A stretch of DNA of 64,000 nucleotides from Myxococcota bacterium (GTDB taxonomy: Bacteria > Myxococcota_A > Polyangia > Nannocystales > Nannocystaceae), in contig JBCCHT010000004.1 of NCBI GenBank assembly GCA_039028615.1, positions 128,001 to 192,000 on the forward strand. The letters run 5' to 3'. Below are positions 33,001 to 39,000 of this stretch, piece after piece. The position numbers were made by a program. Positions within the stretch are counted from its first letter, which is position 1, and each line of letters starts with the position of its first letter.

Positions 33001-36000
33001 CCCGGCGGTCTGGCCATCGTCATGGGCATCTTCAAGAGCCTGCGCATCGACGACATGGCCGCCTCGGGCGGAGCGCTGCGCGAAGGCCTGCTCTACGACA
33101 CCATCGGGCGCATTCAGCACGAGGACGTGCGCGAGTCGACCATCGCCAGCCTCTCCGATCGCCTGGGCATCGACCGCGAGCAGGCCGCTCGCGTCCGAGC
33201 GACCGCGCAGACCTTCATCGAGCAGGTCACCTACGCCTGGGAGCTGCACCACCCCGATCTGCACAACCTGCTGGGGTGGGCGGCGTCCGTCCACGAGGTG
33301 GGCCTCGCGGTCTGCTTCTCCGGCTACCACACCCACGGCGCGTACCTTCTCACCCACGCCGACCTCCCCGGGTTTTCCCGCGACCGGCAGGCCTACATCG
33401 CTGCCCTGGTCGGCGCCCACCGCCGCCGCCTCAAGCCCGATCGTCTCGAGGCCCTGCGTGCGGCCGGAGGCGAGACGGCCGTGCGCCTGGCCGTCTTGCT
33501 GCGCCTGGCGGCCACGCTCAACCGTGGCCGTGACCCCAGCCCCCTGCCCGACTGCCAGCTCACCGCGGCCGGGCGCGTGCTCGAGCTACGGCTGCCCGAG
33601 GGGTGGCTCGACAAGCACCCGATGACGCGGACCGATCTCGACAAGCAGCGCGACTACCTCGCCGCGGCCGGGCTGCACTTCGCGATCACCTGAGTCACAA
33701 TCCAGCGGATGCTGGTGCACGGCCTGTTGCTCGCCACCGCGGCGGCGCCTCCGGGGTTGGTGCCAGAGCCTCCGACCGCGGCGGGTCGCCCTGCCCTGCG
33801 CTGGGACGCGCCGCCGCAGTGCCCCGACGAGCGCGCGGTGACCGAGGCAGTGTCGCGCTACGTGGGGCGCCCGCTGGCGAGCGAGACGGTCACCGCGACC
33901 GGACGCGTGGACACGACCGCCGATGGCTATGCGCTGGAGCTGAGGCTGACGGGTTCTGGCGAGCACACGGAGACCCGCGCGGTGCAGGACGCCGACTGTG
34001 CGCTGCTCGCCGATGTGGCCGCCCTGATGGTCGCGATCGCCATCGATCCCAAAGCCACGACGCTCGCGATCGAAATGCCGGATCCGCCGCTGCAATCACC
34101 CGATCCGGCGCCGATCGAGCCTCGCGACGAAGCGCCCGTCGAGCCACAGCCCGAGCCCGAGCCACAGCCCGACCCCGCAGCCGCACCCGAGCCCCCGGCC
34201 GCCGAAGACGAACCTCCGAGGGCCCTCCGCTCCTGTCGACCGGGGCCGTCAGGCCTCCGCCACAGCCCCCGCGACCTGCGGCCGAGCTGCGGTGCGCTGG
34301 GGCTTCGAGTCGCGCTGCAAGCAGGCGCTCTGCCGCAGGTCGGACCCGGCATCGGACTCGATGCGTCACTGCTGTGGCCACGCGTGAGCATCGTGCTCGG
34401 GGCCTCGTTCTTCTTCGACCAACCCGCCCGCCTCGAGCAAGCGACGGCCCTGGGGGGAGACATCCGCTCGGGGTTCGGTCACGTCCGGGCATGCGGTCGC
34501 CTCGGGTGGAACACGCTCGAGTTTCCGTTGTGCGGCGGGGTGGAAGTCGGCGCGCTGCGGGGTGTCGGCGTGGGCATCGACACACCCCGAGACGACCGGT
34601 TGGGCTGGTTCGCCGCCGTCGCTGATGCCGGGCTCGCCTGGTCGCCGACGCGTCGCTTCGCGCTGGGAACGCGCGTCGGCCCCGTGGTCCCGCTGGTCCG
34701 ACCGAGCTTCGAGATTGCGGGTTTGGGCGCGGTGTTCGAGCCCGCTCCGGTCGGTCTGCGAGCCGCGCTCACCGCCGAAGTCCGCTTCCCGTGACCCTCT
34801 GAAGCGTCGATAACGGCGTTCATTCGTCGATTCGATTTTTCGACACGGAAACGACCTGCTGCGCACATGAACCAACGCGGGAGGGCTTCGATGGTCTCGT
34901 CCCCGTACGTGCGCAGAGGAACCGGCGGTTGGGCAAGCGCGCCAAAATCGAGCAGATCTACCGCGACCACTACGCCTTCGTGTGGCGCATCCTCCGAAGG
35001 CTGGGCGCCCCGGCCGTCGACGATGCCGTGCAAGAGGTGTTCGTGGTGATGCACAGCCGCTGGCAGGAATTCGACTTGTCCAACGGGGCGCGACCGCTGC
35101 TGTACGGCATCGCGAGGAAGGTCGCCGCGCAACAACGTCGGAAGCACGAGCGCCAGCCCCCCGCCCTCGCGCTGGTGCGTGACGCCATGGTCGACCCCGA
35201 AGAAAACTCCGCCCGCGCCGAAGCGGCCCGCGTCATCGAGGCCACCCTCGAGCGCATGGACGAACGCAAGCGCATGGCCTTCGTGTTGGTCGACATCGAG
35301 GGCATGAGCGTCCCGGAGGTCGCCCGCTGCCAGCGGATCAACCTCAACACCGCCTACGCCCGGCTCCGGGCCGCGCGGCAATCCATCCAGCAATCGGTCC
35401 GGCGACATCGCGCCAGGGAGGAGAGCGACCATGTCCGAGCCCGAGCCCCGCGATGAGCTGCCGCCCCTGCCCGACGACGTGCAGGCCTATGTCGACGCGT
35501 TCGCGGCTCGGCAGCAGCCTCCGCCGCGGCAGCAAGAATCGACGTGGGCGGCCATCGAGGAGGAGATCGGGCCCCCGCCGCGGCGCGTCGGCATGCTGGA
35601 GCTGGCCATCGTGGTCGCGATCGCGGCGGCGTTGGTGCTCGTGTTCAGCCTCCGCGGCGACGACCTGCAGCGAGACGTGGACCATCCGCGTAACCAGGCG
35701 TCGTGGGCCAGCGAGGCGCGTGAGTCCGCGGGGACGGCCCAGCCCAAGCGGGCGACCGATCGCTCCCCGGAGCGTGGCCCGGCTCGACGCGAGCCTCCGC
35801 CCCCCGCTCCCCCGACTCCGGTCCCGCAGACGCCGAGCGAAGCACCGACGGCCGTGCCTCCGTCCACGCCGAGCCCGAGCCCGAGCCGCCCGCCGCATCG
35901 CACCCGACGCCCCCCGTCGTCGCCGAAACCGTCGGCCGCTCCAGAGCCCGCAGAGCCCTCCCTCGCCGAAGAGCTGGCGCTGTTCCGCCGCGCCACGCTG

Positions 36001-39000
36001 ATGGTCGAGCGGGACCCGGCCCGGGCCCTCGAGCTGCTCGAGCGCCACCGTCAGCGCTTCCCGCAGGGGACCTTGCGCACCGAAGGTCAGGTGCTGCGCG
36101 CCCGGGCCTTGTGCGCCCTGGGGCGAACCGAAGAGGCCACCCGACTACGCGACGGGTTCATCGCCCAGCATCCGGGTTCGGCCTTGGCTACGCGCATGCG
36201 ATCGGTCTGCCGCTGACAAAAGCATCACGGATCGGCGCCGCCTCGCGCATGAGGTGATTCGAGGATTCAGCACCGCATGTTCAAGCTCCACCCCGTTCAG
36301 TCCATCGGCGTACTCACGACCCTTGCCGCGCTGCCGCTTCTGGTCGCCTGCCCGGGGAGCGTCGGTGACCTCGGCGAGCACGCCGGATCGAGCTCCAGCG
36401 CAGGCTCCACGTCCAACGACGACGGACCGGGCGACACGGCCGTCGCCACCGACGATGGCGCGAGCGCAGCGACGACCACGGGGAACGACGGCACCGACGA
36501 TGCGGCAGAGGGAGCCGACAGCGGGACGGCGGGAGCGATCTTCGATGTCGGCACCGCGCCCGATCCCGAAGCGGGATGCCGCGGGATCGATTTCCTCTTC
36601 GTGGTCGACAACTCGTTCAGCATGAACGAGCACCAGGAGCAGATCGCCGCCGCCGTGCCCGGCTTCATCGACGCCATCGAGGGCTCGCTGAAGAACGAGG
36701 ACGCCGAGTCCTTTCACGTCGGCGTGATCACCAGCGACGCGTATCTACACAACGACCCCACCTGCAACACCATCGGCGACCTCGTCACGCAGACCGAAGA
36801 CCACGGGGTCTGTGGGCCCTTCGCGGAGGGCTACCGCTTCGCCACCGAGCAAGACGACCTCGACGCCGTGTTTCCGTGCATGGCCCGGGTGGGCGTGGGG
36901 CCGACCACGGAGCAGCCGGTCACCGCGCTCATCGAGGCGCTCGACGAGGACCGCAACGGCCCCGGAGGCTGCAACGAGGACTTCCTCCGCGACGACGCGA
37001 TCCTGGTGGTGGTGATCCTCTCGGACGACACGGGCTTCGGAAAGCACACCTTCCCGCCCGACGCGGCGCTCGACGACATCTCGCACTGGAGGCCCTCGGT
37101 GCTGGCGGCCAAGCAGGGCAACCCCGACGCGGTGGTGGTGATGGGCTTCGTCAACGTCGACCTCGGGGTGGCCCCCTGCATCGAGTTCGGCGGTGAGTTC
37201 ACCGAGTCGCAGAACTTCATCGACTTCATCGAGAGCTTCGGCGAGCAGGGCATTCTGTCCAGCGTGTGCCACGACTACGCGCAGGTCTTCGCCGACGCGG
37301 TCGAGTCCATCGACCTGACCTGCCAAGGCTTCACGCCCCCCGCCGGCTGAGGCCTGTGAACCCGGCCCCACGACGACCGTCGCGGGGCCACCCGATGTCC
37401 GGCCCGCGCGGTGATACGCTCGGGCCGTGACCGATTCCGGGCACCGTACCGTCGAGCACACCGCCGACCTCGCGCTCGAGTTCTGGGCCCCCGACGAGGC
37501 CCGCCTGCTCGTGCAGGGTGCCCGCGCCGTCATCGAGCTGCTCACCGAGGGCACCCCGCTGCCCACGACCGAGCCGAGCGCGCGGCCCCTGCAGCTCGAT
37601 GCGCTCGACCCCGAGGATCGCCTCGTGCGCTGGCTCAGCGAAGTGCTCTACCTCGCCTCGGTCGAGGGTTTTTTGTGCACGGACGCCACGCTCGAGCTCC
37701 CGGACGGCGCGCTGCGGGGCACGGTGTACGGGCACGCCGACGCCAGCGAGCACCTGCGTACCGAGATCAAGGCGGTCACCTATCACGATCTGAAGCTCCA
37801 ACGATCCCCCGGCGAGGCCCGAGCCCGGGTGATCTTCGACGTGTGACGCCATGACCATCCGCTTCGAACGCATCGACGATTGCCGCTGGGAGATCCCCCG
37901 CGAGGGCGGCATGCGAGTCCCCGGCCGGGTCTATGCCTCGGCCGCCATGATCGACGACATCCGGCGCGACAAGAGCCCCGAGCAGGTCGCCAACGTGGCC
38001 CACCTGCCCGGCATCGTGGGCCACAGCCTCGCCATGCCCGACATGCACTGGGGCTACGGCTTTCCCATCGGGGGCGTGGCGGCGTTCGACGAAGACGAGG
38101 GCGTCCTGTCGCCGGGCGGCGTCGGCTACGACATCAACTGTGGGGTCCGGCTGCTGCGCAGCAACCTGAAGATCGACGACGTGCGGACCGAACTCGAGCG
38201 CCTGTCGGTGGCGCTGTACCACGCCGTCCCCTGCGGGCTCGGTCGCGGCAGTCGCCTGAAGCTGTCCGAACGCGAGCTCGACCACGTGATGGAGCAGGGC
38301 GCCGCCTGGGCCGTACAGCAGGGCCACGGGCGCCCCGAAGACCTGAAGACCATCGAGGAAGGCGGCTGTTTTCCGGGCGCCGACCCGGATCGCGTCTCCG
38401 AGCGGGCGCGGACCCGGGGTCGACCGCAGCTGGGCTCGCTGGGCTCGGGCAACCACTTCTGCGAGCTGGGCTACGTGGCCGAGGTCTTCGACGACGACAC
38501 CGCCGCGGCCTATGGCCTGCACGAAGGCGAGCTCACCCTGATGCTGCACTCGGGCTCGCGCGGCCTCGGGCACCAGATCTGCGACGACTCGCTCAAGCGG
38601 ATGCTCAAGGCCTCGGCCCAGTACGGCATCGAGCTGCCCGACCGCCAGCTGTGTGCCGCCCCCCTGCGCAGCCCCGAGGCTCAGGATTACTTCGCGGCCA
38701 TGGCGTGCGCGGTCAACTTCGCCTTCGCCAACCGCCAGGTCATGACCAGCTTCGCCCGCGAGGCCCTGAGCGAGGCCCTGCGCATGGGCGACGACGAGCT
38801 CGGCCTCGAGGTGGTCTACGACGTGTGCCACAACATCGCCAAGTGGGAAGAGCACGAGGTCGACGGTGAGATGCGGCGGCTGTGTGTGCATCGCAAGGGC
38901 GCCACGCGAGCCTTCGGCCCGGGACATCGGCAGGTGCCCAAGGCCTATCGCGCCGTGGGGCAGCCGGTCTTGGTGCCGGGCGACATGGGTCGCTACAGCT

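Follow-up and report, generated by a model that had tools for sequence, protein, structure and literature searches.

The locus described here, part of a 64,000-nucleotide stretch of myxococcotal DNA (the window), is read, with a probability of roughly 0.55, as a three-component ECF switch that spans two membranes and has a lipoprotein as its output; an outer-membrane barrel protein would clasp and protect a single-pass anti-sigma factor, and release of the clasp would activate the sigma. The gene order, the domain anatomy, a two-box motif and a module-specific −10 box are established at the level of sequence. The module suggests an undescribed way to wire the cell surface to gene expression; no description of it was found in literature searches, which covered few subscription papers.

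Organization of the locus

The barrel gene (Table 1) begins 15 bp 3' of the stop codon of an upstream gene that we take, from its sequence, to be exopolyphosphatase-like, and no sigma-70 promoter was found in the region. Its product starts with a short signal-like N-terminus and a periplasmic α/β domain, from which a Pro-rich linker leads to an 8-stranded outer-membrane barrel with Phe-Pro at its end; the signal-like segment has no basic n-region and is atypical for a signal peptide. The ECF sigma belongs to a clade of 35 in the genome, and the protein encoded 3' of it is considered a putative anti-sigma from its position and topology: a cytoplasmic two-helix part of ~53 aa, one TM helix (about residues 56−74), a Pro-rich linker and a C-terminal TPR domain. 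Anti-sigmas of the module have a disordered linker of median length 94 aa. The lipoprotein, one of ~50 paralogues, has a weak VWA match (Pfam, E 0.07) and is likely the output of the module's sigma.

Table 1. Genes, domains and predicted promoters of the locus, in window positions
Feature	Position	Strand	Details
Barrel protein gene	33709..34794	+	361 aa; assigned from fold model, Pfam search and structure matches
Periplasmic domain of barrel protein	33784..34056	+	Residues 26−116; beta-alpha-beta-beta-beta-alpha; invariant Cys38 and Cys97
8-stranded barrel domain	34288..34791	+	Residues 194−361; fold model and structure matches
Predicted ECF promoter P1	34844..34870	+	CACGGA, 14 bp, CACATGA; 5' of sigma/anti-sigma
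ECF sigma factor gene	34929..35456	+	175 aa; TTG start, AGGA upstream
Putative anti-sigma gene	35431..36216	+	261 aa; overlaps sigma gene by 26 bp
TPR domain of putative anti-sigma	35944..36213	+	Residues 172−261 (TPR about 176−261); conserved Cys228 and Cys260
Predicted ECF promoter P2	36226..36252	+	CACGGA, 14 bp, CGCATGA; 5' of lipoprotein gene
Lipoprotein gene	36277..37350	+	357 aa; lipobox LVAC; Ser/Thr/Asp/Gly linker; VWA-like domain

Fold and distribution of the barrel family

The window barrel protein has no Pfam match, and those found among 48 aligned family members are merely low-complexity or weak, in keeping with the genome-wide survey's note, which had described the family as lacking Pfam domains. 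The architecture given there, an α/β domain, a Pro-rich linker and an OmpA/OmpX-like barrel, is likewise recovered: the new model (pLDDT 90) has eight long strands, its best fold matches are OmpA, Ail, OmpX and NspA (E 2e-7 to 4e-6), and the barrel aligns with OprF over 131 residues (Z 18.6, rmsd 1.9). The folds closest to the periplasmic domain are of the TolB-N, HPF, TraT, LptE and CsgG types, all at Z ≤8.1; the TolB N-domain (Z 8.1, rmsd 2.8, 89 aligned) is tied with HPF-type folds, and the STN fold is absent among the fold matches listed. Helix 2 of this domain is hydrophobic and is flagged as TM by a hydropathy scan; the linker to the barrel comprises ~75 disordered residues (pLDDT 63−78). 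Barrel paralogues are 22−38% identical and the model displays long surface hairpins.

The family comprises 10,712 clusters at 50% identity, for which there is no Pfam model. A single-protein search returned 35 matches in this genome, the number counted earlier, and an iterated profile finds 37 ORFs. The single-protein search found members in 14 of 61 class genomes; with a profile they turned up in 39 of 41 genomes of the order and in 22 of 151 of the phylum, at up to ~44 matches per genome in the order-level search; this spread is consistent with that noted before from a different sample of class genomes. The relatives named are Myxococcota.

Conservation of gene order

Directly 5' of an ECF sigma gene stand 29 of the 37 barrel genes, with 16 separate anti-sigmas, 12 fused to the sigma and one at a contig end, a recount identical to the survey's. 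Two further barrels are rearranged (contigs C57 and C31) and six have no sigma of their own; 31 of 37 adjoin a sigma plus an anti-sigma region, and chance adjacency of barrel and sigma would be ~3%, since ~245 of the 9,400 called genes are sigmas. Also present in this genome are two intact barrels without a sigma and two fused sigmas without a barrel. The sigma is fused to a TM extension in 12 of the 29 copies here, in one of the 16 loci of Minicystis rosea and in one of the 28 from the family to which that species belongs; the window copy is not of this type. Barrel and anti-sigma are encoded by separate genes in all tabulated modules, and no fusion of the two was seen among 10 longer proteins (a weak search) or among the top 150 representatives by length.

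Synteny in relatives, a check that the survey had left to be made, holds: the barrel-sigma order is kept in 75 of 100 family loci as scored by script, and sigma plus TPR occur at 10 of 16 loci in Minicystis rosea and 23 of 28 in its family. Among distant loci the order is kept in 15 of 20 by script and in three more by eye, and all seven named loci returned by a single-protein scan have sigma and TPR; the linkage of barrel to sigma persists across orders despite rearranged gene order. At 21 of the 100 family loci there is no sigma directly 3' of the barrel; four sigma-less loci have one 2.5−2.7 kb downstream, and none was found upstream in 20 examined over up to 4.5 kb, three of which reach contig ends. 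The gene 3' of the anti-sigma encodes a lipoprotein in 16 of 28 modules and in 49 of 86, versus 135 of 1110 random genes, and the output genes differ from module to module.

A probable two-box promoter motif

The motif consists of two ECF-type boxes, TGACGGA and a variable −10, separated by 14 bp; it was called present at a score above 12, and locus L180, where the barrel frame reads through, was excluded from the promoter statistics. It occurs 3' of the barrel stop codon (5' of the sigma) in 54 of 113 regions and 3' of the anti-sigma stop codon (5' of the next gene) in 30 of 113, compared with 4 of 600 control regions; no barrel gene out of 114 has it upstream, which argues that the barrel is not simply an output. 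At loci kept out of training it is found in 8 of 37, and roughly half of the modules have no detectable motif. Within a module the −10 boxes are identical at 7.2 of 10 positions versus 4.4 when permuted (0 of 5000 permutations, n=25), and this likeness is unchanged once close kin are removed (n=18). Two other origins of the motif were rejected: a direct repeat flanking the cassette, because the spacer shows no within-module excess of identity, and a mere echo of barrel stop codons, because none of 21 sigma-less barrels is followed by the motif. The two-box motif is very probably the promoter of the cognate sigma, and the variant that drives the neighboring lipoprotein seems to be particular to each switch.

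Modelled contact between the barrel protein and the anti-sigma

The survey had modelled the periplasmic domain of the barrel protein onto the TPR with a score of 0.75 against 0.18 for the best control; a rerun with residues 26−116 of the barrel protein and 172−261 of the anti-sigma gave 0.79 against 0.01 for the best of three controls, the runs agreeing in at least 94% of contacts with a partner pLDDT of at least 85. Of solved pairs, 116 of 157 attain the mark set for this score, as do 2 of 215 mismatched ones; these figures are approximate for this run because the analysis's own alignments were used. A sequence search yielded no solved relative of the periplasmic domain, which makes it less likely that the pass reflects a structure memorized by the predictor. 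Helix 2 (residues 99−114) sits in the groove of the TPR in the model. Two of 20 covariation pairs noted beforehand (L106−L215 and M107−L215) are among the 25 model contacts listed, an overlap that is not independent because the alignments overlap; mean-field covariation over 115 pairs is marginal, with a top z of 7.9 versus up to 7.2 in 30 shuffles. By distance trees the TPR tracks the periplasmic domain (r 0.163) no more closely than a length-matched part of the barrel (0.166). The best solved matches of the TPR profile are the N-terminal TPRs of BamD (E 8e-8), which leaves room for a ligand other than the barrel protein. Physical contact between the barrel protein and the anti-sigma is considered probable.

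Proposed mechanism and alternatives

It is hypothesized that hydrophobic helix 2 inserts into the TPR groove, thereby linking the outer and inner membranes via two flexible linkers, and that an anti-sigma held in this clasp is, at rest, safe from site-1 proteolysis. Outer-membrane strain or shedding, cleavage, or something that engages the surface loops of the barrel may undo the clasp, whereupon RseP-type and periplasmic proteases would degrade the anti-sigma or, where it is fused to the sigma, cleave it. The genome encodes M50 and S41 proteases, and RseP of M. xanthus is described as cutting DdvA that lacks its periplasmic domain (PMC11506125). Once free, the sigma would drive transcription of the sigma/anti-sigma genes at P1 and of the variable lipoprotein gene at P2; the barrel gene would remain outside the feedback loop because it lies upstream of P1. 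The common −35 box and the differing −10 boxes may keep ~30 paralogous switches partly insulated from one another. Because both partners are on long disordered linkers, a tether whose loss is the signal is considered likelier than a receptor-like relay, and the signalling domain of FoxA is described as protecting FoxR at rest (PMC11637429); the protective, release-to-activate mode is put forward tentatively, at somewhat short of even odds.

The same complex could instead act as an activating receptor, with each barrel recognizing a particular external ligand or cell surface and TPR engagement promoting proteolysis of the anti-sigma, comparable to the older FecA-type model. The diversity of the barrels and their long hairpins, the variation in outputs between modules, and FecR-bearing sister modules, which suggest an origin in cell-surface signalling, agree with such a receptor; it is considered unlikely, however, as the barrel is without a plug, TonB box or energy source, the disordered linker would be a poor conformational relay, and no ligand site was found. 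Rather improbable, too, is an arrangement with no regulatory contact. Here the TPR would respond to something other than the barrel, which would itself be an envelope protein inherited along with the module and might, for instance, help to display or anchor the lipoprotein. This arrangement would account for the want of a specific co-evolution signal, for the intact helix 2 of the 21 family barrels without an adjacent sigma, and for three of the six sigma-less barrels in this genome lying ~300 bp or less 5' of a lipoprotein gene, but it fits poorly with a complex model that passes while its controls stay at or below 0.01, with a sigma-pair linkage that survives across orders and rearrangements, with barrels never standing behind the sigma motif, and with only 1 of 21 sigma-less family barrels preceding a lipoprotein gene. 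Least probable is an assembly monitor, in which a BamD-like TPR captures unassembled outer-membrane protein with the cognate barrel as reporter, so that the switch reports failed barrel assembly: the BamD matches of the TPR profile speak for it and BamD binds unfolded barrels, but the likeness to BamD may be generic to short periplasmic TPRs, the groove is filled in the model by a helix of a folded periplasmic domain, and ~30 paralogues with differing outputs are ill-suited to one stress.

Comparison with known systems

Signalling without TonB by way of an 8-stranded barrel has a precedent in the one-chain Dma/Reo anti-sigmas of Bacteroidota (PMC10927553); the module here would be a split, TPR-clasped variant of barrel-to-anti-sigma signalling. 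Dma1/Das1 (Reo/EcfO; ECF21) resembles it in having a sigma-binding cytoplasmic part, one TM helix, a disordered tether and an 8-stranded barrel without TonB (PMC10927553), and the model here likewise places a C-terminal barrel behind the tether. A sigma-fused form, Dma3, exists and release by proteolysis is proposed (PMC10927553). Dma is one polypeptide and is reported as confined to Bacteroidota, whereas here two proteins from Myxococcota would be joined by a TPR and an α/β domain; split forms are noted in ECF21s9, s16 and s28, their joining not being described in the supplement entries concerned (PMC7826278).

FecA-FecR-FecI and Fox share with the modelled complex a contact between the N-terminal periplasmic domain of an outer-membrane protein and the C-terminal domain of a single-pass anti-sigma, and the protective resting contact described there (PMC11637429) is the one proposed here. 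The module differs in its small plug-less barrel, a periplasmic domain that models as TolB-N-like where those systems have STN, its TPR dock, the lack of FecR in the core set, and an outer-membrane gene outside the predicted regulon. DdvS/DdvA of Myxococcus xanthus is also alike in its single-pass anti-sigma with periplasmic TPRs, which in DdvA is cut by RseP; DdvA combines a cytoplasmic CHCC domain that binds zinc with a large sensor of TPR-CHAT type, with no outer-membrane partner mentioned in the parts of the paper available (PMC11506125), while the window anti-sigma has no Cys in its cytoplasmic part and no CHAT match.

Three ECF groups of the PMC7826278 supplement can be compared by description only, and the entries available mention no barrel, complex or conserved promoter. 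ECF220 consists of Polyangiaceae sigmas that carry a TM extension, in one case together with a TPR, and has at −1 a conserved 'extracytoplasmic protein with two TM helices'; likened by description only, the barrel protein is compatible with this through its signal-like segment and TM-flagged helix 2. In ECF267 one to three protein kinases are encoded nearby, and the +1 anti-sigma has both FecR and TPR with no TonB receptor alongside; the window module lacks such a FecR-TPR anti-sigma. ECF210 is myxobacterial, its regulator unknown in that source.

A broader and rather unlikely proposal is that the >10,000 Pfam-less clusters form a phylum-wide, TonB-independent signalling class of Myxococcota, in which every barrel paralogue senses a distinct cue at the surface and pairs exclusively with its own anti-sigma to turn on one lipoprotein via a −10 code, giving 30−45 insulated channels per cell; the outer-membrane partner that ECF220 and ECF267 lack would be the same barrel type. 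The switch reading itself, if right, would name partner, promoter and outputs for a large share of unexplained myxobacterial ECF sigmas (35 of 233 in this genome fall in one clade, plus ~15 sister modules), provide a second, probably independent, TonB-free route across both membranes beside Bacteroidota Dma, and assign a role to a very large protein family that has no Pfam model. Direct tests would be feasible with two small soluble domains, defined promoter pairs and Minicystis rosea DSM 24000 as a cultured host; sets of sigma and promoter that have the −35 in common but swapped −10 boxes may, in addition, serve as orthogonal switches.

TonB, FecR and sister modules

The genome has 13 matches to the TonB-dependent receptor domain (PF00593), none within 20 kb of a core module, and its sole STN match lies in a 1436-aa secretin-like gene, in line with the survey's chain without a TonB receptor. 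The chain was also said to lack FecR (PF04773), a domain absent from the window protein; this is correct for the core modules, which contain none of the genome's 10 FecR matches, but not beyond them, as five of the 10 are FecR-domain anti-sigmas beside barrel-like genes in sister modules. The survey's signalling reading is supported in part: anatomy, gene order, fold and modelled contact hold up, and three points of it are amended, namely the precedent set by Dma, the limit of the FecR-free statement to the core set, and the long linkers that make a conformational relay less likely.

About 15 sister modules, with 15 sister barrel genes, are present in the genome; two of them, L007 and L038, have a FecR plus TPR anti-sigma at +1 without a TonB receptor, as is described for ECF267. 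Whole-protein jackhmmer links to the sister barrels were discounted because of the Pro/Glu linker. Homology was undetected in the periplasmic domain, and four sister barrels show it weakly in the barrel domain only (E 9e-5 to 0.18); the sister barrels are treated as having the same architecture, homology not being proven. An atlas model of one sister barrel aligns with OmpA-type barrels.

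Module organization and distribution

The four-gene unit that the genome-wide survey's note placed on this strand is confirmed in position by gene calling and domain search; a 361 aa barrel protein without Pfam or NCBIfam match is followed by an ECF sigma factor, a single-pass protein with a TPR domain at its end, and a lipoprotein that matches VWA weakly. The module is considered to be a real, widespread and coherent system in which TonB-independent two-membrane ECF signalling takes a split, TPR-clasped form, the contact being modelled and the promoter code predicted. Iterated profile search of the genome (12.3 Mb, 94 contigs) finds 37 barrel ORFs, and the order claimed earlier, with the barrel directly before the sigma, is seen at 29 of them (separate anti-sigma 16, fused 12, contig end 1); since sigmas make up only ~245 of the 9,400 called genes, this adjacency is far above chance. 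Two ORFs are arranged otherwise (sigma, anti-sigma, barrel on C57; convergent on C31), and six have no sigma of their own, three of these missing the periplasmic domain, one apparently frameshifted and two intact. The module sigmas form one clade of 35 among 233 genome sigmas (FastTree support 0.97), within which fused forms are dispersed; the sigma-to-TM segment of fused forms scores a median of ~11 bits against a profile of the separate anti-sigma N-terminus, compared to ~1 for shuffles. Locus L017 carries two whole modules, one fused and one separate, divergent and back to back; in the sigma-less barrel of L008, which is probably frameshifted, the final strands are swapped for out-of-family sequence. 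The genes downstream of the window module, whose labels are presumptive and judged from sequence, are not kept beside other module copies.

Locations of features in the window and in other genome sequences (G000, this genome; G236, Minicystis rosea)
Feature	Location	Strand
Predicted P1, two-box motif copy	window 34844-34870	
Predicted P2, two-box motif copy	window 36226-36252	
Window VWA-like lipoprotein gene	window 36277-37350	+
Presumed archease-like and RtcB-like RNA ligase genes, then glycine-betaine-type ABC transporter; downstream of module	window 37427-39290	
Sister modules	G000 C1:486143, C1:648455, C3:407453, C5:200571, C7:250695, C8:97613, C11:82154, C12:101165	
Sister modules, continued	G000 C15:68424, C22:164706, C28:8810, C31:7696, C33:80296, C38:16509, C61:7430	
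Candidate regulon genes	G000 C24:53851, C12:199363, C6:172055	
Further match to window sigma's promoter pattern	G000 C6:252908-252934	-
Sigma-less barrel	L008:3132-4001 (G000 C5:294119-295291)	
Paired modules	L017:6001-8076 (G000 C16:41646-43727)	
Barrel gene in two pieces	L201 (G236 C1:9067656-9068563)	
Barrel with sigma fragment	L212:1411-2766 (G236)	-

Synteny in relatives, left open by the survey, has now been mapped. By profile search the periplasmic domain occurs in 39 of 41 order genomes, which hold as many as 44 matches each, and across the phylum in 22 of 151 genomes; those relatives that have names are myxobacteria, among them Plesiocystis pacifica and Minicystis, and the host is probably Nannocystaceae-like. 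Among 100 of ~600 family matches, drawn from the best-scoring rows, the barrel accompanies a sigma with separate anti-sigma at 38 loci, a fused form at 36, the reverse order at one and a sigma only at two; two fall at the end of a contig, and no sigma adjoins the other 21. Neither sigma nor TPR was found in the stretch of up to 4.5 kb upstream of 20 of these 21, and helix 2 is intact in the sigma-less barrels examined. Fifteen of 20 distant loci (taken from 27) score as modules; in three more the sigma and TPR lie upstream or are encoded on the opposite strand. Minicystis rosea DSM 24000 has the four-gene unit as in the window; sigma and TPR are present at 10 of 16 loci in this species and 23 of 28 in its family, and a Polyangiaceae-seeded profile aligns with that of the present family at 99.9% probability. 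In the same species, a sigma region-2 fragment is fused in frame into the middle of the periplasmic domain at L212, which resembles a module with an internal deletion; at L201 the barrel gene before a fused sigma is matched as two pieces, suggesting a break.

Barrel protein and modelled TPR contact

The proposed architecture of the barrel protein is reproduced by AlphaFold2 (48 sequences, pLDDT 90) as a small α/β domain joined by a low-confidence linker to eight long strands. The modelled barrel matches those of integral outer-membrane proteins, in structure search OmpA (E 2e-7) and in fold comparison OprF (Z 18.6) and NspA, OmpW and OmpA (Z 17.5), well over soluble barrels (Z ≤12.8). Modelled alone (pLDDT 93), the periplasmic domain is closest in fold to the TolB N-domain (Z 8.1, rmsd 2.8, 89 aligned), with HPF-type folds scoring equally and TraT, LptE, CsgG and PelC coming next; the modelled fold is a common type from which function is not readable. 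Its profile matches 10,712 clusters at 50% identity, and the nearest Atlas clusters are without names and mostly from Myxococcota. Both this domain and the TPR have conserved cysteine pairs, which fit a periplasmic location.

The complex of TPR residues 172-261 with barrel-protein residues 26-116, remodelled with alignments of 114 operon-paired rows, scores 0.79 compared to 0.01 for the best control, with run-to-run contact agreement of at least 94% and partner pLDDT of at least 85; as the pair is that modelled before, this is a replication rather than an independent line. Of 157 solved pairs 116 came up to the score mark of the test, as did 2 of 215 mismatched ones; these counts are only approximate for the custom alignments used here. 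In the model, TPR groove residues L178, F185, L215, E218, L222 and R255 hold helix 2 (L99-P114) of the barrel protein. Two of 20 covariation pairs recorded beforehand are among the listed model contacts; because the overall covariation signal between partners is marginal and distance trees reveal no special tracking between them, paralogue specificity of the contact is as yet without support.

Sister modules

Most TPR anti-sigmas that at first seemed barrel-less adjoin other 330−410 aa proteins of like plan; ~15 such sister modules pair different barrel-like proteins with an ECF sigma and TPR anti-sigma, several in the order sigma, anti-sigma, lipoprotein, barrel. Homology of their barrels to the core barrel is weak or unproven. 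The survey described a system with neither TonB receptor nor FecR; the former part stands, as the 13 TonB-receptor matches of the genome all lie more than 20 kb from any core module, while the latter holds for the core set only, FecR domains occurring in five sister modules. The sole STN match of the genome is in a secretin-like gene. Sister modules with FecR and TPR are reminiscent of ECF267, which combines both without a TonB receptor, as described in the PMC7826278 supplement.

Predicted promoter motif

TGACGGA is enriched after barrel and anti-sigma stops (33 of 114 barrel stops versus 1.3 expected). A two-box model (-35 TGACGGA, 14 bp, variable -10; score >12) is matched before the sigma in 54 of 113 regions and before the next gene in 30 of 113, and it finds 8 of 37 loci outside the training set. 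Upstream of barrels there is no match in 114 regions and after sigma-less barrels none in 21, while controls give 4 in 600. Genome-wide, 12 of 37 genes scoring >14 are sigmas. In modules with two copies, the -10 box is common to the pair (7.2 of 10 versus 4.4; 0 of 5000 permutations, n = 25), a sharing also recorded with close kin dropped (n = 18) and in seven modules of this genome (5 of 5000 permutations); in this set the -35 box is near-universal and the spacer has no within-module excess. The sigma-4 region reads the -35 box and the sigma-2 region the -10 box; the common -35 and variable -10 agree with the conserved sigma-4 helix and variable sigma-2 loop of module sigmas. The motif, its strings absent from the portion of the ECF classification supplement text searched, is predicted from sequence to be the promoter code of these modules and is new to this analysis. 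Strong copies are also carried by genes elsewhere in the genome that encode secreted proteins or lipoproteins, candidate members of the regulon; the window sigma's exact pattern has one more match, intergenic and oriented away from the called gene starts closest to it.

Proposed mechanism and outputs

Beyond the modelled contact, every step is one that we infer. The barrel would anchor the docking domain beneath the outer membrane, and the anti-sigma, through a ~94-residue linker, would clasp it with its TPR; because both sides have floppy linkers and there is no TonB, the signal would most simply be loss of the clasp, not a shape change. Release may lead to anti-sigma proteolysis by analogy with FoxA/FoxR, where contact at rest protects the anti-sigma (PMC11637429), and with DdvA, cut by RseP (PMC11506125); M50 and S41 proteases are encoded in the genome. 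Freed sigma would transcribe from P1 and P2, leaving the barrel gene outside the loop.

Dma1/Das1 comprises an anti-sigma, TM, tether and 8-stranded barrel (PMC10927553); the module would work like it and like cell-surface signalling, yet falls outside both by their defining tests. It may overlap ECF220, ECF267 or ECF210, likened by description only. No description of the module was found in the literature searched.

A predicted lipoprotein follows the anti-sigma in 16 of 28 and 49 of 86 modules, compared to 135 of 1110 random genes, and domains encoded there vary (FG-GAP, VWA-like, VWC, beta-propeller-like). The VWA-like lipoprotein of the window, weakly matched (E 0.02) by the model of a Bdellovibrio MIDAS adhesin, is one of a family of ~50 in the genome, most of which lie outside barrel modules.
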